From: a virus
Lineage: Duplodnaviria > Heunggongvirae > Uroviricota > Caudoviricetes
Strand: one strand, 5' to 3'
DNA: 6,802 nt
IMG/VR virus record: IMGVR_UViG_2563366874_000009
The notes under the pieces are model-generated. The model had not been told where the DNA came from. It ran no database searches and was given only the letters and a program-made list of their open reading frames with translations. The position numbers and the translations under genes are program-made. Positions 1-6,802 of the stretch are shown piece after piece (positions within the stretch are counted from its first letter, which is position 1; each line of letters begins with the position of its first letter).

Positions 1-102
1 TATATAATTATAGATTTATATAAAAAGTGCTTTACAGGTGGGAAAAAATTTCCTATGGTTATACCCGAAACCGAGCGATACCCGCCCTGGTTAAACCGGA
101 GA
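1..102. repeat. Terminal direct repeat, copy 1 (identical to 6701..6802); implies circular or tandem unit of 6700 bp
   Basis: Exact identity of bases 1..102 with 6701..6802 by direct reading; contains junction motif A and the 5' end of the first ORF. Confidence 0.9.
31..59 (+). promoter_or_regulatory. Putative sigma70-type promoter for the DUF3560-like gene
   Basis: TTTACA (31..36), 17 nt spacer, TATGGT (54..59); lies just downstream of AT-rich motif A. If used, it would exclude ATG 55 as the start and favour ATG 109. Confidence 0.3.
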
Positions 103-108
103 AATCTG

Positions 109-1176
109 ATGAATAAACAAGTAATTATTTCTGACTGGATCAACAACCCTAACAGCCTGTTAAGCACTGATACTGGCTACCTATTACGCCATGTTAATGG
201 TCGTATGGTCAAAAGCGATGAGCACGAAACCTTTTTCTTTGTTGAAGACGATGGGCGTATCTATGAGGATGGTTACTCTTATGAAGCCCAAACTGGTTGT
301 ATCCCTGCGGAGCTGGTGGATGTAACAGAAGATCTGCGCAAAGCATGGCTTGAACAGCAGCAGCGCGGAGATGATTACGTAAACACCTATCAGGAACGCC
401 AGAACGCGCGTCTTGCCCGATATATTGCTCGTGCAGAAAAAGCCAGAAAAGAAGGTGCGGTAGCGCGTAAGCGAGCGCATGACCTGTTGGATGTGATCCC
501 GTTAGGCCAGCCGATTTTAGTTGACCATTATAGCGCGAAAGGCCATCGCCGCCGTTTGTCTAAAGCTGATGCGTTATTCAGAAAAGCGTTTGTTGAATGC
601 GAAAGTAAAGCATCACACTACGAGAGCAAAGCCGCAGGTGTTGGTCGTAATGGAATTTCGTCTGATGATCCTGATGCGCTATTTAAGTTGCTTCGTAAGC
701 TGCAAGGCTGCATGAAGTCACACGTCAAAATGAAGGCCGCAAATAAGGCCATTCGCAAATACAAAAAAGACCAATTACAGCAGCTTTCTGCATTAATCGA
801 TCTCAGGTTTACAGAAAGCGAAGCCAAAGAGTTACTGGCCGGAGATTTCTGTGGGCACATCGGATTCCCTTCATACGCACTGAGCAACAATAACGCCGAA
901 ATCAAACGACTACAGAGCCGTATTAAGGAGCTTGAATCGGTCAAGTCTGTAACAGGAGCACAGCGCGAAGAATACGACGGCTTTTCTATGGAGATAGATC
1001 CAGAGGATAACCGCATCCTGTTTTATTTCCCTGGCAAACCAGAGGCAAACATTCGTTCGCTGCTTAAATCACGCGCCTTTAAGTGGAGTCCAACCCGTAA
1101 TGCATGGGTTCGCAAGATTACTCCAAACGCCCTGGCTGATGCCCGATATCTAAAAGAATCGCTATTGAAAGCCTGA
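109..1176 (+). CDS. DUF3560-like protein (function unknown; family often found in prophage/plasmid accessory regions)
   Basis: ORF 55..1176 in track; GGAG at 98..101 is 7 nt upstream of ATG 109, whereas ATG 55 has no well-spaced SD. Central motif GQPILVDHYSAKGHRRR plus flanking Arg/Ala-rich helices match my recollection of DUF3560. Alternative start 55. Confidence 0.55.
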   Translation: MNKQVIISDWINNPNSLLSTDTGYLLRHVNGRMVKSDEHETFFFVEDDGRIYEDGYSYEAQTGCIPAELVDVTEDLRKAWLEQQQRGDDYVNTYQERQNARLARYIARAEKARKEGAVARKRAHDLLDVIPLGQPILVDHYSAKGHRRRLSKADALFRKAFVECESKASHYESKAAGVGRNGISSDDPDALFKLLRKLQGCMKSHVKMKAANKAIRKYKKDQLQQLSALIDLRFTESEAKELLAGDFCGHIGFPSYALSNNNAEIKRLQSRIKELESVKSVTGAQREEYDGFSMEIDPEDNRILFYFPGKPEANIRSLLKSRAFKWSPTRNAWVRKITPNALADARYLKESLLKA

Positions 1177-1187
1177 CAGTAAGCCTA

Positions 1188-1207
1188 CGGCGGGACGTCT
1201 CCCGCCG
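1188..1207 (+). terminator. Perfect 8 bp inverted repeat hairpin (CGGCGGGA / TCCCGCCG) 12 nt after the ORF stop; possible intrinsic terminator
   Basis: GC-rich stem with 4 nt loop, followed by AT-rich sequence with a T-run only further downstream (TATATAGAATTATATATTT). Confidence 0.35.
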
Positions 1208-1240
1208 TATATAGAATTATATATTTATATAAATGTATAA
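1208..1240. repeat. AT-rich junction motif, copy B (ATAGAATTATATA-TTTATATAAA)
   Basis: Shares a 13-mer ATAGAATTATATA and a 10-mer TTTATATAAA with copy A (which has an extra 8 bp ATTATAGA between them); lies between block 1 and block 2. Confidence 0.7.
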
Positions 1241-1253
1241 GGACGCCTCGGCA

Positions 1254-1535
1254 ATGAAACGCAAAATTATTAACCCCCAAGATGTGATTAATTTCCTGAC
1301 CGATCACCCATGTTCAAAAGTGGACGTAATCGCGGAGCACATTGGTGTGTCGCAGAACTCTATGCGTTGCAGACTGAGAAGCATGGTTGCCGAAGGACAG
1401 ATAACAACCAGGAAAATAAATGGTTGCCTGTACTACTCCGCTAAACCGGAATTGCCATTTGGCATGAATCCTAACTCCATGTTGTTTAACACCTTATTAG
1501 CCAAAGTTAAGCCGTTGAGAGGGGCTGTGGCATGA
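1254..1535 (+). CDS. Small winged-helix/HTH-like DNA-binding protein (putative regulator), first gene of the coupled operon
   Basis: ORF 1233..1535 in track; AGGA about 10 nt upstream of ATG 1254, ATG 1233 has no SD. Segment VDVIAEHIGVSQNSMRCRLRSMVAEGQI looks like an HTH. Stop overlaps next start (ATGA at 1532). Confidence 0.45.
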   Translation: MKRKIINPQDVINFLTDHPCSKVDVIAEHIGVSQNSMRCRLRSMVAEGQITTRKINGCLYYSAKPELPFGMNPNSMLFNTLLAKVKPLRGAVA

Positions 1536-1897
1536 GCATCAAAACCCATACCGGAATAATCATTACCAATGATGGTGAGAAAAAAGTGAAGTTGCGCGAG
1601 ACGCCGACAACCTGGTGTGTTGGTCCGAAAGAAACATATCGCAAGGAAGATGGCCGTCGTTGTGGGGCACCACTTTCCCGCCGTCGCCTCCTCTTGAGCA
1701 CGATAAAACCTATCGGGCAGGTTGAGCAACCAACGACTCCGGTAACGAAGATTTCAGACAAGAGTCTGGCAAACCTGATCGCTGATGCGGACAAGGTGCT
1801 GGAGCGGAACACCCCCGTTGCAGATGAGGAATGGTGGCAGGATTTCCGAGCCGCAATGCTAGAGCTTCAGGAACGTCGTCGGGAGGAGTTGAAGTGA
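1532..1897 (+). CDS. Hypothetical protein (121 aa)
   Basis: ORF in track; ATGA overlap with upstream stop and GTGA overlap with downstream start indicate translational coupling; no family recognised. Confidence 0.5.
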   Translation: MSIKTHTGIIITNDGEKKVKLRETPTTWCVGPKETYRKEDGRRCGAPLSRRRLLLSTIKPIGQVEQPTTPVTKISDKSLANLIADADKVLERNTPVADEEWWQDFRAAMLELQERRREELK

Positions 1898-2085
1898 ACA
1901 AGAAAAATGCCGGATGGGTCAGGCCAATGAAGGCGAATAAACATCATTATTTTAATGAAGGTGAAGTAACCAGCATTTGCGGCCGTTGGATGTATTTTGG
2001 TGATTACCGTGAGCCAGACACTTTTGAGAGTCCTGATGATTGCGTGTCTTGTCGCCGGAAATTGAACAAGGTGGCTTCTAAATGA
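1894..2085 (+). CDS. Small hypothetical protein (63 aa) with three Cys
   Basis: In frame with track ORF 1831..2085; GTG 1894 overlaps upstream stop (GTGA) and stop overlaps next ATG (ATGA at 2082). Start codon choice uncertain. Confidence 0.35.
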   Translation: MNKKNAGWVRPMKANKHHYFNEGEVTSICGRWMYFGDYREPDTFESPDDCVSCRRKLNKVASK

Positions 2086-2702
2086 AAGAACGTGGTGTTG
2101 TTTTTAATGACGATATGGTTAGGGCCATCCTCGAAGGAAGGAAGACGCAGACTCGCCGACCTGTAAAAAATGTCAGGGCCGATAACTGCCTGGTTATCCG
2201 TAAACCGACAAAGAAACGCAATGGTGTCTATACCCACGTTATGGATGCACCGGAACATGGTTTATGCCCGTTCGGTAACGTTGGTGATCGCATATGGGTC
2301 CGTGAAACATTCAACGCTTTTTGGCTGGATAACGATGTCATTCAGGAAATCAAAGATGGTGTCTCTCTGGCTTCTGAACTGTGTGATTACAAGGCTGATT
2401 ACTCAGATAGTAGCAAGCCAGCTGAGGGCTGGACCCCGTCGATTCACATGCCGCGCTGGGCTTCGCGTATTTTGCTGGAAATTACCGACGTGCGTGTGGA
2501 ACGGCTGCATGACATGAGCGAGGCAGATGCTAAAGCGGAAGGCGCATCTCCGGCGACGTACAAGATTACACCGCCGGAAGCGGTTTATCGCGTTGGCTTT
2601 GGTGATATCTGGCGCGGTATTTACGGGCAAGAGAACTGGCTATCTAACCCGTGGGTATGGGTAATTGAGTTTAAACGTATTCAGGGGGCAACCAGTGAGT
2701 AA
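2082..2702 (+). CDS. ASCH-like domain protein (PUA-fold; predicted nucleic-acid binding or modified-base recognition)
   Basis: N-terminal MVRAILEGRKTQTRR resembles the ASCH GxKxxExR signature region and DRIWVRE the second conserved motif; assignment from memory of this common prophage family. Confidence 0.5.
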   Translation: MKERGVVFNDDMVRAILEGRKTQTRRPVKNVRADNCLVIRKPTKKRNGVYTHVMDAPEHGLCPFGNVGDRIWVRETFNAFWLDNDVIQEIKDGVSLASELCDYKADYSDSSKPAEGWTPSIHMPRWASRILLEITDVRVERLHDMSEADAKAEGASPATYKITPPEAVYRVGFGDIWRGIYGQENWLSNPWVWVIEFKRIQGATSE

Positions 2703-2952
2703 TTCCGCACGGCTACAGCTTGGTTTTTCACCGCTATCAAAAACCATCGTGTTGGCCAAAATGCGCGATTTAGGTGACGGAACAAAACGCCGTGTAGGCA
2801 ATGATCGCGGTCGTGATGTAACCAACGAGGCCGCACAACTCGTTTGGCATCTTGTCATGGCAGAAGGCGGTGAAATCAATTGGGAGCTGGATGATGGTTC
2901 TCGCATGGTGTTAAGGGCAGAAAAGCAGGGGGCAAACGATGAAAAACCGTAA
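2695..2952 (+). CDS. Hypothetical protein (85 aa)
   Basis: In frame with track ORF 2665..2952; GGGGG at 2684..2688 is 6 nt upstream of GTG 2695, which overlaps the upstream stop (GTGAGTAA). Alternative start ATG 2665 or 2761. Confidence 0.4.
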   Translation: MSNSARLQLGFSPLSKTIVLAKMRDLGDGTKRRVGNDRGRDVTNEAAQLVWHLVMAEGGEINWELDDGSRMVLRAEKQGANDEKP

Positions 2953-3133
2953 AGCAAAGATTCTGTTAGTTCGTAGAAACGCTCCTGGCGTCTGGCAGTG
3001 GGTGAGACTCAGCAACCGACGGATGGGGTTAATGAAACATTACGGGATGATGGATTGTGGTTTTTGCAAAAAGCCCAGCGCGGCGCAAAACCGCTGGAAA
3101 AACCACTGTTATCTGCGCACTAAAGGAGAGTGA
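2939..3133 (+). CDS. Small basic Trp/Cys-containing hypothetical protein (64 aa)
   Basis: ORF in track; GGGGG about 7 nt upstream of ATG 2939, start overlaps upstream stop. Composition is unusual, so it could be a spurious frame. Confidence 0.3.
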   Translation: MKNRKAKILLVRRNAPGVWQWVRLSNRRMGLMKHYGMMDCGFCKKPSAAQNRWKNHCYLRTKGE

Positions 3134-3134
3134 T

Positions 3135-3563
3135 GTGACCACTTTTACCGACAAAGAAATGATTAAAGAAATCAAAGAGCGCATAGGCAGCTTGGACGTT
3201 AGAGACAATATTGAGCGCCGTGCTTATGAAATTGCACTGGCATCACTGGAAGCAGAGCCGGTTGCAGTAAACGACGATATGGCTTACGCATTCCATCACG
3301 CATTGTCAGATTCATCGCTAGGCGCTGATGAAGTAGAGGAAATTAAGGCCGGTTTGCGTGCTGCCTTTGCCAACGTCACTATCCAACCAGAGCCGGTAGT
3401 GCCGGATGATGGGCGCGAAAAGTTCGAAGCACTTGTCAGGTTTCATGCGGGTGATAAAAACCATGAAACATTATTGCTTCGTGCCAACGAAGGGATGAAT
3501 TACCAGGACCCGAATGTTGATCTGGCGTGGATATTCTGGAAGTCCAGTCGTGAACATATATAA
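3135..3563 (+). CDS. Acidic hypothetical protein (142 aa), last gene of the coupled operon
   Basis: In frame with track ORF 3057..3563; AAGGAG at 3124..3129 is 5 nt upstream of GTG 3135. Alternative start GTG 3057. No Cys, so not a Zn-finger Q-type antiterminator. Confidence 0.5.
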   Translation: MTTFTDKEMIKEIKERIGSLDVRDNIERRAYEIALASLEAEPVAVNDDMAYAFHHALSDSSLGADEVEEIKAGLRAAFANVTIQPEPVVPDDGREKFEALVRFHAGDKNHETLLLRANEGMNYQDPNVDLAWIFWKSSREHI

Positions 3564-3579
3564 GCTGTAGTGAGAAGCC

Positions 3580-3759
3580 ATGCGCTTACGAGCAGTATTC
3601 AGATATTCAGAGCGGGTAATGAAGCACATACAACCGAAAACATGGCAGAAACTGGACTCTATGGGAGTTAAGTTGGAGAAGATTACTCAACTTAAGCAGT
3701 GGCATATCGGCGAATATTATGGAAGTCCTGGTCGGGATGTTCGGTTGGTAAAAAGTTGA
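3580..3759 (+). CDS. Possible small ORF (59 aa) in the leader region, absent from the ORF track
   Basis: Read by hand: ATG 3580 to TGA 3757..3759, with internal ATG 3619; non-repetitive peptide; weak SD; antisense to track ORF 3607..3789. Confidence 0.2.
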   Translation: MRLRAVFRYSERVMKHIQPKTWQKLDSMGVKLEKITQLKQWHIGEYYGSPGRDVRLVKS

Positions 3760-3904
3760 ACATTGCTTTTTTATTGATCGATTAACCACGATATGAAGGT
3801 TTTTTTATGGGGAAACCTTGTTTTAGGTGGTAACTGGGTGTAGTGTTTCATTTAACGTAGTAAAACTGCGTTAAGCGATTACCGCGTAATTTGTTGCTTT
3901 ATGA
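3760..3904 (+). promoter_or_regulatory. Structured leader upstream of the lysis cassette (candidate late promoter / antitermination region)
   Basis: Hairpin AAGGTTT..AAACCTT (3796..3819) and imperfect inverted repeat TTAACGTAG..CTGCGTTAA; several weak -35/-10 candidates (e.g. TTGAAC at 3756) but none convincing. Confidence 0.3.
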
Positions 3905-3936
3905 AGCCCTGCCTTTTTCGGCGGGGCTTTTTTTTT
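3905..3936 (+). terminator. Rho-independent terminator directly upstream of the holin RBS (tR'-like position)
   Basis: 9 bp stem AGCCCTGCC / GGCGGGGCT with one G-U wobble, 6 nt loop, followed by a 9-T run; orientation-specific for the + strand. Confidence 0.6.
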
Positions 3937-3949
3937 AACGAGGATTTCA

Positions 3950-4345
3950 ATGTCAGCAGAACCAATTTCCGGTACGGCCGTTGCTGCTGGTGGCCTGATG
4001 GGGGCCAGCGTTTTTGGTATTGCAACTGGTATTGATTACGGCGTTGTATTCGGGGCATTTGCTGGCGCTGTTTTCTATGTTGCTACAGCGGTGAATATTA
4101 GCCGTCTCAAGCTGATTGGCTATTTCTTTACATCGTTCATTGTTGGAGTGATTGGAGCGCCGTTAGTTGGCTCATTTCTTGCCAAATGGACCAGCTACAA
4201 CGATCGTCCTCTTGATGCACTTGGTGCGGTTATTGTGGCTGCATTGACAATTAAAATCCTCACGTTCGTAAACAGCCAGGATCTCGGTAGCATCTTTGGA
4301 ATGCTTTCCCGCTTACGTGGAGGGGGTTCAAATGGTAAGCAGTGA
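3950..4345 (+). CDS. Putative holin (multi-pass membrane protein)
   Basis: GAGGA SD before ATG 3950; three to four hydrophobic helices rich in Gly/Ala; charged C-terminus; sits immediately upstream of the endolysin. Confidence 0.6.
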   Translation: MSAEPISGTAVAAGGLMGASVFGIATGIDYGVVFGAFAGAVFYVATAVNISRLKLIGYFFTSFIVGVIGAPLVGSFLAKWTSYNDRPLDALGAVIVAALTIKILTFVNSQDLGSIFGMLSRLRGGGSNGKQ

Positions 4346-4628
4346 CCCGTCAGCACTGATTAATGCGGTGCTTTGCACAGTAATAGTAATGGCGCTGATG
4401 CTTTATCGACGGAAAGACTCCAGGCATCGTCCATTTGTTTCCTTTCTGGCTTATATCTACGTCATTGTATACGCCAATGTTCCCTTCCGTTATGTGTTCG
4501 GTCTTTATCAAGAATCCCACTGGCTGGTGGTTATTGGAAATCTGATTACCTGCATCGTTGTTCTGTATTTCAGGGGCAATCTGGCGCGAATAGTTGACGC
4601 ATTAGGGTTTAATCATGACCAAAGATGA
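4332..4628 (+). CDS. Second lysis-cassette membrane protein (holin or antiholin-like, about 3 TM segments)
   Basis: In frame with track ORF 4296..4628; GGAGGGGG SD 5-7 nt upstream of ATG 4332; overlaps holin 3' end and endolysin start. Confidence 0.45.
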   Translation: MVSSDPSALINAVLCTVIVMALMLYRRKDSRHRPFVSFLAYIYVIVYANVPFRYVFGLYQESHWLVVIGNLITCIVVLYFRGNLARIVDALGFNHDQR

Positions 4629-5157
4629 GATTTTTAACAGCGTTCTTGGAAAAGAGGGCGGCTATGTGGATCACCCTGACGACAAGGGAGGCCCAACAAA
4701 GTGGGGCATTACTCAGAACACTGCCCGTGCTCATGGATACCGTGGCGATATGCGCGATTTAACCCGCGAACAGGCACTGGAAATCCTTGAGGCTGATTAC
4801 TGGTACGGACCACGCTTTGATCAGGTGGCCGCATTATCCTCTGATATTGCCGCAGAGCTGTGTGATACCGGTGTGAATATGGGGCCAACAGTGGCGTCCA
4901 AAATGCTTCAACGCTGGCTGAATGTGTTCAATCTGCGTGGGAAGCTGTATCCCGATTTGGATGCAGATGGACGAATCGGTCCACGTACCATTAATGCGCT
5001 GCGTGCTTATCTTGGGAATCGGGGAAAAGACGGCGAACGGGTGATGCTGACGTCGCTGAACTGTACGCAGGGCGAACGCTATCTGGAGCTGGCGGAGAAG
5101 CGCGAGGCGAATGAGTCGTTTGTCTACGGCTGGATGAAAGAGCGAGTGGTGGTATGA
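4615..5157 (+). CDS. Endolysin, glycoside hydrolase family 108 N-domain with peptidoglycan-binding C-domain
   Basis: N-terminal LGKEGGYVDHPDDKGGPTKWGIT is the GH108 signature region as I recall it; stop overlaps i-spanin start (ATGA at 5154). Confidence 0.8.
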   Translation: MTKDEIFNSVLGKEGGYVDHPDDKGGPTKWGITQNTARAHGYRGDMRDLTREQALEILEADYWYGPRFDQVAALSSDIAAELCDTGVNMGPTVASKMLQRWLNVFNLRGKLYPDLDADGRIGPRTINALRAYLGNRGKDGERVMLTSLNCTQGERYLELAEKREANESFVYGWMKERVVV

Positions 5158-5432
5158 CTGGTTTGAAGGCCGTTTTGTCATTTATTGGCACAATTATATT
5201 GGTTGCATTCGGCGCGTTTGGTTTTGGTCGTATGAAGGGGCGAGAAAAGGCCGAAGATGAAGCTGAAAAGCAGCGCATAAATGAGAATGCAGCCGCCGTA
5301 AAAGCCACTGCGGAGCGGCGTATAGAAGTGACAAAAGAGGTGGGCAATGTACAGCAGAGTGTTAACCATATGGCTGATGACGATGTTGATCGCGAGCTGC
5401 GGGAGTCGTGGAAGCGTCCCGGTGGTGGTTGA
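5154..5432 (+). CDS. i-spanin (Rz-like; N-terminal TM helix then charged periplasmic helical region)
   Basis: Hydrophobic segment LKAVLSFIGTIILVAFGAFGF followed by Glu/Lys/Ala-rich sequence; position after endolysin; o-spanin starts inside it in another frame. Confidence 0.6.
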   Translation: MTGLKAVLSFIGTIILVAFGAFGFGRMKGREKAEDEAEKQRINENAAAVKATAERRIEVTKEVGNVQQSVNHMADDDVDRELRESWKRPGGG

Positions 5433-5556
5433 TACTGCCTGTGATTGGGTAAAGCCCATCTACCTGACTGATCACGATATCGATGTTATGGACCGCCAGA
5501 CAAAGAAAGATATTCTGGCTCATAACAGGGCATGGGAAATCAACTGCCCCAAGTAA
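5347..5556 (+). CDS. o-spanin (Rz1-like outer-membrane lipoprotein), overlapped architecture
   Basis: AGAGGTGGG SD before ATG 5347; signal peptide MYSRVLTIWLMTMLIASC with lipobox IAS-C; starts within the i-spanin gene and extends past it. Confidence 0.6.
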   Translation: MYSRVLTIWLMTMLIASCGSRGSVPVVVDTACDWVKPIYLTDHDIDVMDRQTKKDILAHNRAWEINCPK

Positions 5557-5590
5557 TATATATTTCTATAATTATATAAATATATAGTTA
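5557..5590. repeat. AT-rich junction motif, copy C (inverted relative to copy B)
   Basis: TTATATAAATATATA matches the reverse complement of the copy B core (about 17/21); begins directly after the o-spanin stop. Confidence 0.6.
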
Positions 5591-5646
5591 CAACATTCTA
5601 TGCGCTTTTCTCATGGGCGCACGCATCAACCATGTTTGTCTGATAT

Positions 5647-5700
5647 GCCGCCGCGCCCAAAAATCCTGAATTTATTGGCTGGGATTTTCGTGCGCGGCGC
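5647..5700. other. Long interrupted inverted repeat 26 bp upstream of the tRNA
   Basis: Outer 8 bp GC stem (5649..5656 with 5692..5699) plus inner 7 bp stem AAAATCC/GGATTTT (5660..5666 with 5682..5688) around a 15 nt loop; no T-run follows. Confidence 0.4.
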
Positions 5701-5725
5701 CACACCAGACAAACAGATCAAATAT

Positions 5726-5801
5726 GGCCCCTTAGCTCAGTGGTTAGAGCAGGCGACTCATAATCGCACGGTCATCGGTTCAAATCCGGTAGGGGCCACC
5801 A
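5726..5801 (+). tRNA. tRNA with CAU anticodon; closest by memory to enterobacterial tRNA-Ile2 (lysidine-modified, reads AUA), phage-borne variant
   Basis: Cloverleaf read by hand: 7 bp acceptor stem GGCCCCT/AGGGGCC, D-arm GCTC-AGTGGTTA-GAGC, anticodon loop CTCATAA (CAT at 5759..5761), T-loop TTCAAAT, 3' ACCA. The 5' half matches my recollection of E. coli ileX; T-arm differs. Confidence 0.85.
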
Positions 5802-6109: not shown

Positions 6110-6697
6110 ATGGAGGCAATTGCATTGTTTAATCTGATTTATGCAGATCCCCCCTGGGAATACAAAGATAAGTGTAAGGATGGGAATCGTGGAGCTGGTT
6201 TTAAGTATCCAACGATGAAAGCTGAGGATATTGCTCGTATTCCTGTCTGGCAGCTTGCTAATCCTGAATCGTGTTTGTTGGCCATGTGGTGGGTTCCGAC
6301 TCAGCCAGAAGAAGCGTTGCTGGTGGTGAAAGCATGGGGATTCAGGCTTATGACCATGAAGGGCTTCACATGGAACAAATGTGGTAGCCGACAACCAGAT
6401 AAGCTGGTGATGGGGATGGGGCATATGACTCGTGCAAACAGTGAAGATTGCTTGTTTGCGGTAAAAGGCAAATTGCCGACCCGCCTTGATGCGGGGATCA
6501 TTCAGTCGTTTACATCGCCTCGTCTGGAGCATTCTCGGAAGCCTGATGTGGTTCGTGACAAGCTGGTAAGGCTGTTAGGTGATGTTCCTCGTATTGAGCT
6601 GTTTGCTCGCGGTGATTTACCTGATGGTTGGCATGGCTGGGGCAACCAGTGCAATGGAGGTATCCAGTTGCATGATGCTCTCTGGCAAGTGGCATAG
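6110..6697 (+). CDS. DNA N6-adenine methyltransferase, MT-A70-like family (orphan, no cognate nuclease seen)
   Basis: Catalytic DPPW motif (LIYADPPWEY) near the N-terminus followed by MT-A70-like conserved blocks; GGAGG SD about 9-10 nt upstream; stop TAG 6695..6697 abuts motif A. Confidence 0.75.
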   Translation: MEAIALFNLIYADPPWEYKDKCKDGNRGAGFKYPTMKAEDIARIPVWQLANPESCLLAMWWVPTQPEEALLVVKAWGFRLMTMKGFTWNKCGSRQPDKLVMGMGHMTRANSEDCLFAVKGKLPTRLDAGIIQSFTSPRLEHSRKPDVVRDKLVRLLGDVPRIELFARGDLPDGWHGWGNQCNGGIQLHDALWQVA

Positions 6698-6730
6698 AAT
6701 TATATAATTATAGATTTATATAAAAAGTGC
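6694..6730. repeat. AT-rich junction motif, copy A (ATAGAATTATATA-ATTATAGA-TTTATATAAA); also present at 1..30 through the terminal repeat
   Basis: Begins within the methyltransferase stop codon; shares 13-mer and 10-mer with copy B. Confidence 0.7.
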
Positions 6731-6802
6731 TTTACAGGTGGGAAAAAATTTCCTATGGTTATACCCGAAACCGAGCGATACCCGCCCTGGTTAAACCGGA
6801 GA
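6701..6802. repeat. Terminal direct repeat, copy 2 (identical to 1..102)
   Basis: Exact identity with 1..102 by direct reading. Confidence 0.9.

Follow-up and report, generated by a model that had tools for sequence, protein, structure and literature searches.

Tandem 8-bp box arrays in a phage-plasmid family as candidate dispersed binding sites for a ribbon-helix-helix partition protein

The DNA analyzed here is a 6,802-nucleotide (nt) stretch from a virus of the Caudoviricetes (IMG/VR record IMGVR_UViG_2563366874_000009), and "the window" refers to the whole of it. At 97-99% identity, the window matches part of a circular replicon of ~48 kb that has two known forms: a virion genome, that of Yersinia phage vB_YpM_39 (OR545053.1, 49,027 bp), and a plasmid, found in at least 51 complete Escherichia coli genomes (about 60 complete plasmids) and carried by, among others, E. 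coli ATCC 25922 (NZ_CP009073.1). Infectious virions of the same family are those of Yersinia phages vB_YpM_39/41/44. A relative that has been fully annotated by PGAP, pMB9698_3, is a phage-plasmid with myovirus structural genes, RepA, a small ParA followed by a small downstream gene, a CI-like XRE/S24 repressor, a Rha-family regulator and a toxin-antitoxin pair. Arrays of 8-bp boxes recur beside the gene blocks of the window (Table 1), and in what follows we argue that these arrays are probably sites for the partition protein of the element itself. Though it looks circular, the window is most likely a contig from the ~48-kb replicon that has a copy of the same repeat at either end; the appearance of a 6.7-kb circle arises because its two ends are identical 102-nt cassette copies.

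An earlier note, made from the letters of the window alone, had described three copies of an AT-rich, near-palindromic motif. The copies do lie where it had placed them, at 1210-1241, 5555-5588 and 6693-6724, the last being repeated at 1-24 (the match of 6694-6730 to 1-30 reflects the fact that the last 102 nt of the window repeat its first 102 nt exactly). The note had taken the motif to be a core of ~23 bp; instead, each copy consists of four tandem 8-bp units of the form TATAKAWW in strict register, and we describe the motif as a tandem array rather than a 23-bp core because its matches step exactly 8 bp at each site. A search of the window for TATATAATTATATA with up to two mismatches returned 11 matches where 200 dinucleotide shuffles predict 0.03, and every match lay within 1-22, 1210-1239, 5557-5586 or 6693-6722. 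The same search in L002, a complete phage genome from the family, gave 21 matches against 0.19 expected. Across 58 units the base counts by position were T54, A50, T58, A58, T40/G18, A56, A45/T13 and T38/A15, and the unit shifted one base to the left reads TTATATAA, an 8-bp palindrome. As a specificity control we used 2.1 Mb from 166 other viral loci, in which arrays of at least three units were found only in relatives, plus one each in two unrelated loci, while none of the 86 pure A/T runs of at least 20 nt elsewhere in these 2.1 Mb held an array. The numbers of matches and the empty A/T runs bear out the suggestion that the motif is not a chance AT-rich spacer.

Each copy follows the last gene of a block, as the earlier note had said. 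Array A overlaps the end of the MT-A70 methyltransferase gene, whose TAG stop (6695-6697) falls within the first unit, and its end is 6 nt from a -35 hexamer (6731-6736), so that it covers about -41 to -72, the position of an UP element; its truncated copy A' runs into the A-tract AAAAAG (22-27). Array B starts 34 nt past the DUF3560 stop (1176), just after a G+C-rich hairpin that is terminator-like but has no clean U-tract, and counterparts of this hairpin precede arrays at 27.4 kb in L002 and at the par promoter described below. Downstream, array B leads directly into a ribosome-binding site and start codon, AAGGA-CGCCTCGGCA-ATG(1254), also given as AAGGA-N-CTCGGCA-ATG. Array C begins 1 nt past the stop of the last open reading frame (ORF) of the lysis block (5347-5556) and ~135 nt before the tRNA; neither a consensus promoter nor a ribosome-binding site is attached to it at 5555-5588. 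The note had also called copy C inverted, which is plausible, as its sole TATAG unit is on the minus strand, but the orientation is weakly defined in a unit that is nearly palindromic, and on the plus strand array C can be read as four TATA-type units at 5557-5588. The further claim that the motif marks every block boundary holds for the array sites but not for the boundary before the lysis genes (3563-3950), which has a terminator and a small RNA (sRNA)-like element instead.

Table 1. Arrays, cassette elements and genes of the window
Feature	Coordinates	Strand	Sequence or description
Array A'	1-24	+	TATATAAT-TATAGATT-TATATAAA; cut by window start; exact copy of 6701-6724
Sigma-70-like core promoter	31-59; second copy 6731-6759	+	TTTACA-N17-TATGGT
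Spacer palindrome	41-53 and 6741-6753		GGAAA-AAA-TTTCC, within the 17-bp promoter spacer
Leader hairpin	69-92	+	AACC..GCG-loop-CGC..GGTT, then Shine-Dalgarno GGAGA (98-102)
DUF3560 gene	109-1176	+	
G+C-rich hairpin	1189-1206	+	GGCGGGA-CGTC-TCCCGCC, directly 5' of array B
Array B	1210-1241	+	TATAGAAT-TATATATT-TATATAAA-TGTATAAG
Small-gene operon	1254-3759		winged-helix protein gene first
Lysis genes	3950-5556		holins, GH108 endolysin, spanin-like ORFs
Array C	5555-5588	-	minus strand TATATATT-TATATAAT-TATAGAAA-TATATATT = 5555-5586
tRNA	5726-5801		CAT anticodon
MT-A70 methyltransferase gene	6110-6697		
Array A	6693-6724	+	CATAGAAT-TATATAAT-TATAGATT-TATATAAA
Terminal repeat	6701-6802	+	whole cassette (array, promoter, leader), identical over 102 nt to window 1-102

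The A-type sites are part of a longer cassette of ~115 nt, in which the array is followed, after 6 nt, by a promoter, a hairpin leader of ~50 nt, GGAGA and a start codon. Consensus sigma-70 promoters are depleted in the window (2 matches against 9.8 +/- 2.7 in shuffles), and the two matches that remain are the duplicated promoter of this cassette, with no other consensus match in the window. Three cassettes are present per complete genome, each before a different gene, and across relatives the genes that they head are unrelated (DUF3560, DUF4942 and small ORFs). The spacer palindrome keeps its symmetry while its sequence changes, to TAGGAAAATATTTCCTA in Salmonella, TAGGA-N7-TCCTA in Serratia (five copies) and TAGGAAAGAATTTCCTA in L009, which suggests a second regulator at the cassette promoters. 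In the leader hairpin, two A-U pairs are replaced by compensatory G-C pairs in the Serratia copies (RNAalifold, nine sequences), both of which come from a single lineage split. Comparison of the cassettes of L005 (17,580-35,140) with those of L002 (27,430-44,195) revealed that the copies within one genome are closer to each other than to their orthologs; e.g. the Salmonella copies share substitutions (GGTAGGAAAATATTTCC, AGTAACCAG) that are absent from all three E. coli copies. The dispersed cassettes thus appear to evolve in concert by gene conversion. One correction to the gene list belongs here: the start of the DUF3560 gene is at 109, and the listed ORF 55-1176 begins at an ATG within the -10 hexamer.

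The distribution of the arrays was determined in complete relatives from E. coli (L002 and L003) and Salmonella (L005) and in a Serratia relative, the phage-plasmid pJSRIV006_2. L002, L003 and L005 each have exactly eight arrays, three at the par operon and five dispersed, and three of the five dispersed arrays are the copies in the window. All eight lie within an ~18-kb region of plasmid-maintenance, early and accessory genes, and the ~30 kb of structural genes in these three genomes contain none.

The partition genes lie outside the window and were read from the replicons that are 97-99% identical to it. On the parA strand, a terminator-like hairpin is followed by an array (TATATGAT-TATAGATT-TATATAAT-TATATAAA) upstream of the -35 hexamer, ACGC, the promoter TTTTCA-N17-TATGCT, 8 nt, a second array (TCTATAAA-TATAGATT-TATAGAAT-TATATAAC) downstream of the -10 hexamer, a Shine-Dalgarno sequence and parA. 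The tail of the parA 5' untranslated region (array-GGAG-TCTCGACAA-ATG) matches the B type of site in the window, and a third par array of four units separates the parA stop from the gene that follows. To judge by its order of elements, the par promoter has what would be the classic autoregulatory layout of a type Ib partition module, and the four contiguous 8-bp boxes around it fit this class because of the precedents of ParG and omega, which are compared below.

ParA is a small Walker ATPase of 217 amino acids (aa) that matches CbiA, ParA and MipZ. Next after parA comes a gene for a protein of 82 aa, in which a basic and disordered N-terminal tail precedes a ribbon-helix-helix (RHH) domain at the C terminus. 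The protein itself has no Pfam match, and searches of PDB sequences with the protein and with its family profile gave nothing useful. An exhaustive search found 61 homologs, 53 of which were aligned; all have an N-terminal tail that is basic and rich in proline, followed at the C terminus by the pattern LNFKV-EFKREFKxFA-xSMxELLxxFExYK, and 15 of the 53 match Pfam RHH_10 weakly. In an AlphaFold (AF2) model residues 1-40 are unstructured and residues 41-80 form a strand-helix-helix with pLDDT >90. Among the 50 PDB matches listed by Foldseek for this model almost all are RHH proteins (StnY, CdbA, AmrZ, CopG, Arc, ParD, AtaR, MatP and PutA), two rows being the anti-CRISPR AcrIF25; the target-normalised TM score reaches 0.87 and the best matches have a root-mean-square deviation (rmsd) of 1-2 A over ~42 residues, although some lower-ranked rows have an rmsd of 3-5 A and the E-values are weak, as expected for a domain of 40 residues. 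In hhalign the RHH region aligned with ParG of plasmid TP228 (sequence checked against PDB entry 1P94) with E = 1.9e-4 and a probability of 47%. The 82-aa protein is therefore predicted to have a ParG-like ribbon-helix-helix fold and, since it is encoded next to a 217-aa ParA, the two proteins make up a type Ib partition module.

If the arrays are read by the partition protein, boxes at the par promoter and at the dispersed sites would be expected to change together, and this is what is seen in more distant relatives. The Serratia partition protein is ~38-40% identical to that of E. coli, and pJSRIV006_2 contains no TATA-type arrays; in their place, arrays of TAAATAWW/TATTTAWW/TCTTTAWW flank the par promoter and recur at four dispersed sites, where they are fused to a recognisably homologous promoter-leader cassette or, in one case, to a B-type tail (GGACACCTCGACAATG). 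More than 15 related phage-plasmids have a different box that has changed in step at the par promoter and the dispersed sites, and the array layout around the par promoter is found with other box sequences in more than 20 related loci. The boxes fall into classes: TTAGCGAW (L007), TAYRTAWW (L008), TCTTTAWW (L009 and L103), GATATAWW (L101, L105 and L106), TAGCGTTA (L108-L114) and TTCTTTAT (L115-L120). When the arrays were compared by the fraction of 7-mers that they share, dispersed arrays and the par arrays of their own genome gave 0.6-0.96, with the exception of one L009 cassette (0.37), whereas values between box classes were mostly 0-0.3 and were higher for related classes, e.g. Serratia and L009. 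For the arrays of the window, the shared fraction of 7-mers is 0.73-0.93 with the E. coli par arrays, 0.25-0.50 with the near-related class of L008 and 0-0.12 with the classes of Serratia, L009 and L007.

The same arrangement was recovered from viral loci that encode a related ParA. A dispersed copy was counted where at least 50% of 8-mers were shared with the locus's own par-upstream region, and by this measure 19 of 24 loci hold 1-6 dispersed copies of their own par arrays, while cross-locus controls averaged 0-0.7 (1.09 for L104). ParA of these 19 loci is at least 37% identical to E. coli ParA; the five loci without dispersed copies in this test were L122 (38% identity) and the more distant L123, L129, L131 and L133. 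Dispersed par-type arrays, each with its own box class, are general in a wide clade of phage-plasmid-like viral contigs (IMG/VR L101-L120). Two other searches added little: a scan of viral contigs with the 15-mer TTTACAGGTAGGAAA returned mostly chance matches, the two loci that were relatives both having the same box class, and a search of genome contigs with a single ParA returned one unrelated metagenome-assembled genome. One class contains G+C, and L108 (AGCGTTAW) has 32-nt arrays (AGCGTTAA-ATAACGCT-AGCACGCT-ATAACGC) directly before a Shine-Dalgarno sequence and ATG inside operons. AT-richness alone is therefore not the explanation for the arrays, because this G+C-containing class has the same arrangement.

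The box also varies with the beta-strand of the RHH domain, which is the strand predicted to read the DNA. Strands QMAFNV and QMSFNV occur with the box TATAKAWW, xNFNx (four loci) with TCTTTA/TAAATA and PLNFRV with TAGCGTTA. Where the strand is KQLLLRLD, every array contains 2-4 copies of GATAT/ATATC, and where it is KQLLLQLD there are none at par and 0-2 at the dispersed sites, i.e. a switch between Arg and Gln is accompanied by the gain or loss of a G.

Taking together the anatomy of the arrays, their genomic distribution, the modeled RHH fold and the co-variation of box and protein, we infer that the arrays are bound by the 82-aa protein; the effect of binding would be repression, not activation. 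The arrays would then be dispersed operator or centromere-like sites for the element's own RHH partition protein, attached to portable cassettes, and we consider this the probable explanation. In such a system one RHH dimer would occupy each box, and contacts between touching neighbors would lead to cooperative coating of the four boxes. At the par promoter the two arrays that sandwich the -35 and -10 hexamers would provide both autorepression and a centromere. At the A-type sites (6693-6724 and 1-24) the array is over the UP-element position and protein bound there would switch the cassette promoter off; at the B-type site (1210-1241) and the sites within operons it would act as a roadblock or as an operator close to the ribosome-binding site; and at site C (5555-5588) it may be either a roadblock between the lysis genes and the tRNA and methyltransferase genes or an extra centromere site. 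The accessory and establishment genes would fire on entry into a cell free of the protein and be damped once the partition protein had accumulated. Genes controlled in this way would include the DUF3560 gene, the winged-helix operon and the genes after the methyltransferase, and in relatives Lar (Serratia), the DGQHR gene (Salmonella) and the DUF4942 gene (L009). The dispersed arrays may also serve as additional centromere sites.

Several points weigh against this interpretation. The link between the protein and the arrays is correlative, and the partition genes are outside the window, so that their presence in the element is taken from the 97-99% identical replicons. Everything diverges in the distant relatives, and another regulator that co-diverges could in principle be the reader. 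The likeness of the arrays within a genome could come partly from gene conversion. The units hold TATAAT-like hexamers, together with an A-tract, and their conservation may be partly for RNA polymerase. Finally, scans for consensus promoters resolved none at array B or array C.

The alternative that fares best is that the arrays are the operators of a different regulator of the element, such as a small helix-turn-helix (HTH) protein encoded near repA or a protein of the early operon, with par being co-regulated. Several small putative DNA-binding proteins are common to the E. coli, Salmonella and Serratia elements and have diverged between them, and the second conserved palindrome in the spacer of the A-type promoters implies that more than one regulator acts there. 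However, short boxes in contiguous groups of 3-5, with a period of 8 bp, on either side of a parA promoter are the hallmark of RHH partition proteins (PMC3130281, PMC9499535), dimeric HTH proteins are not known to bind in this manner, and the box tracks the beta-strand residues of the RHH protein, including the Arg/Gln switch. On balance we regard a different regulator as unlikely. Three specific candidates for the reader were considered and set aside. The CI-type repressor has distinct operators of its own, ACCAC-N5-GTGGT, which are similar in Serratia where the arrays change. RepA iterons are improbable because IncFII-type RepA replicons are controlled by antisense RNA, not by iterons; a match to Pfam IncFII_repA was seen for RepA of the relative L008 only, and no array adjoins repA in the complete relatives. 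Host nucleoid proteins do not serve as the sole explanation, given the element-specific changes in the box and the G+C-containing class.

It is less likely still that the arrays are an intrinsic feature of promoters that requires no dedicated protein, i.e. an UP element, curved or melting DNA, a set of -10-like hexamers or a target of H-NS-type silencing. The position of the A-type array would suit this idea, since ATAAAAAG is an A-tract at about -38 to -45, where the proximal UP subsite would be, and since the units contain TATAAT, some consensus promoter matches taking array units as their -10. Of the copies, A has TTTACA-N17-TATGGT with the A-tract, and B and C have no consensus promoter. 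An intrinsic feature, however, would leave the strict 8-bp register and the invariant T3, A4 and A6 unaccounted for, as well as the arrays that sit downstream of the par -10 hexamer and directly before ribosome-binding sites. It would also not explain why the box differs from element to element when the RNA polymerase of the hosts is essentially the same, why the AGCGTTAW class has the same architecture, or why 86 other long A/T runs in 2.1 Mb have no such arrays.

Comparably improbable, and perhaps slightly more so, is that the repeats are primarily recombinational and, like the PeSL cassettes of T4-type phages, promote the exchange of gene blocks between related phage-plasmids. The earlier note had raised the possibility of a recombination site that shuffles modules and would be found at synteny breakpoints, and two joints in homology between the E. 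coli and Salmonella elements do lie at array edges. At the first, homology ends at 1253 and resumes at 1242, after array B and its Shine-Dalgarno sequence, with the DGQHR gene inserted there; at the second, the first base of array C (5557) is exactly where homology begins, and the lysis genes upstream are unrelated. The occurrence of the A-type cassette before unrelated genes in different relatives, the concerted evolution of the copies within a genome and the two identical 102-nt copies that bound the window are also in keeping with a recombinational role. Against it, most rearrangements between the window and its close E. coli relatives are inside the operon and away from the arrays (1902-2083, 2306-2436 and 3133-3395), mosaic joints occur at gene borders in any case, and wherever a functional site is conserved, detectable homology is bound to begin there. 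Recombination also offers no account of why the boxes are periodic, why arrays occur at the par promoter or why the box co-varies with the RHH protein. The sites have no dedicated recombinase linked to them; the Hin-type invertase is adjacent to tail-fibre genes. The joints at the array edges look like the products of homologous exchange at conserved regulatory cassettes rather than of a dedicated recombination site, and the suggestion of a recombinational role is partly right, as a secondary property of the cassettes.

The earlier note had also offered a promoter or operator shared by one regulator, and this appears correct in kind, with copy A directly upstream of a promoter, but not in the regulator that it named. 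It is very improbable that the winged-helix protein (1254-1535) binds the motif, or that a phage factor reads the motif as a T4-late-type TATAAATA promoter. In favor of these ideas, array B is immediately upstream of the winged-helix gene, the gene matches a PHROG annotated as a MarR-family regulator and TATAAAT-like strings occur in the units. Against them, in Salmonella the DGQHR gene separates the winged-helix gene from array B, and in Serratia the gene has no homolog and the arrays and cassettes are kept. The Pfam match of the winged-helix protein (FaeA, 17 bits) does not reach the threshold, and a row of four tandem 8-bp boxes is unlike the two-half-site operator of a dimeric HTH protein. 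The same boxes flank the parA promoter beside the RHH gene outside the window. No sigma-like or gp55/gp33-like gene is listed in the fully annotated relative, and the sole good promoter beside an array is an ordinary -35/-10 pair, TATAAAT being simply part of the 8-bp units. For the DNA-unwinding element that had been suggested as well, no evidence was found.

The system that we propose, with the RHH partition protein as reader of the arrays, combines features of several known ones. ParG of TP228 binds ACTC boxes spaced by 4 bp, which gives an 8-bp period, with one dimer per box in either orientation, and coats both the par operator and the centromere (PMC3130281). The element studied here resembles TP228 ParG/OF/parH in having a small ParA followed by a protein of ~80 aa whose N-terminal tail is flexible and whose C-terminal domain is of the RHH type, in having short boxes with an exact 8-bp period and flexible orientation in AT-rich DNA, and in having arrays that overlap the par promoter, where they would serve autorepression. 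It differs in the box (TATAKAWW, in contrast to ACTC with a 4-bp spacer), in having arrays of 3-5 boxes over eight sites, five of which are kilobases from par, and in that the dispersed arrays are at other promoters or ribosome-binding sites; the sequence similarity to ParG is marginal. Omega of pSM19035 binds six parS sites of 7-bp repeats over three promoters, and at least four contiguous repeats are needed for it to activate ParA (PMC9499535). As with omega, an RHH centromere binder would here be a repressor that acts through contiguous repeat arrays at several promoters, and the four-unit arrays equal the functional minimum of four repeats for omega. However, omega is from a Firmicute plasmid and recognizes 7-bp heptads, 7-10 per array, at three maintenance promoters, whereas the units here are 8 bp long at eight sites and the putative targets include accessory and lysis-adjacent genes of a temperate myovirus-plasmid, on portable cassettes.

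Partition-protein sites that are scattered over a replicon and affect the transcription of non-partition genes are familiar from KorB of RK2 and from SopB/sopC of N15, the latter being a phage-plasmid with dispersed centromeres among its phage genes. KorB and SopB are large HTH ParB proteins of type Ia that bind single palindromes and spread, unlike the candidate reader here, which is a small type Ib RHH protein at tandem 8-bp boxes. The unit in its TTATATAA register, as an 8-bp palindrome, also resembles the metboxes of MetJ, an RHH protein that binds as one dimer per 8-bp near-palindromic box, with 2-5 contiguous boxes per operator and cooperation between neighbors. MetJ is a chromosomal, corepressor-dependent metabolic regulator with no role in partition, and its box AGACGTCT is unrelated to the sequence found here. 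Finally, PeSLs of T4-type phages are mobile cassettes of a promoter and a stem-loop (PMC2839356, PMC4122927). Like them, the cassette here is a repeated promoter and stem-loop at the borders of variable genes that coincides with mosaic joints; unlike them, i.e. unlike early promoters of lytic T4-like phages that have no repeat-array operator, it bears an element-specific array that changes with the partition protein.

Some further features of the window are recorded here as observations in their own right. The tRNA was called as Met by ARAGORN and as Ile by PGAP in the annotated relative, and with its CAT anticodon it may be a lysidine-type tRNA-Ile2; directly 5' of it is a long imperfect hairpin (5633-5715) with 34-nt arms that are 85% complementary. 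The intergenic region before the holin gene (3778-3935, plus strand) matches Rfam GcvB (RF00022) from end to end with 34.3 bits, below the gathering cut-off of 42 (E = 8e-5 over the whole window). The G/U-rich R1 seed is partly kept (UGGGUGUAGUGUUUCA) and the region ends at a strong terminator (3903-3930), so that it may be a phage-plasmid GcvB-like sRNA or a late-leader RNA. Within it, TTAACCACGATATGAAGG at 3781-3798 resembles the ACCACGATATGTGGT-type palindromes that form a cluster at ~34,500-34,620 in L002, between the CI-like repressor gene and the early operon, and may be a repressor half-site where the sRNA-like or late region begins.

Literature searches on the name of the phage and on the phage-plasmid of ATCC 25922 found no description of this family, and we found no paper that links phage-plasmids to RHH partition proteins. 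Nor could we find described (i) a type Ib RHH operator array that is dispersed on portable cassettes across a phage-plasmid, (ii) the conservation of such a dispersed arrangement through a wide clade or (iii) box specificity of dispersed arrays that co-evolves with the partition protein. The repeated 102-nt cassette is also of practical importance, as it breaks short-read assemblies and can make a 6.7-kb fragment seem to be a circular genome.

Phage-plasmids must coordinate plasmid maintenance with the silencing of phage genes, and to our knowledge how this is done in the smaller families, other than those of P1 and N15, is largely unknown; the present family is common in E. coli. If our interpretation is correct, a single 82-aa protein couples segregation to the control of accessory and establishment genes. 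A broader proposal, which we advance only tentatively, is that the RHH partition protein might be a genome-wide switch throughout a broad clade of enterobacterial and environmental phage-plasmids, in which four-box arrays on portable cassettes would silence establishment, anti-restriction and lysis-adjacent genes once the element is established and would double as dispersed centromeres, and in which the co-evolution of box and beta-strand would create incompatibility-like classes of "regulatory immunity" among recombining elements. About eight box classes can already be matched to variants of the beta-strand and, if the protein does read the arrays, they would amount to an 8-bp code that is readable from natural co-variation and useful for the design of RHH specificity. 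The arrays would then also mark portable regulatory cassettes that shape the mosaicism of these elements.

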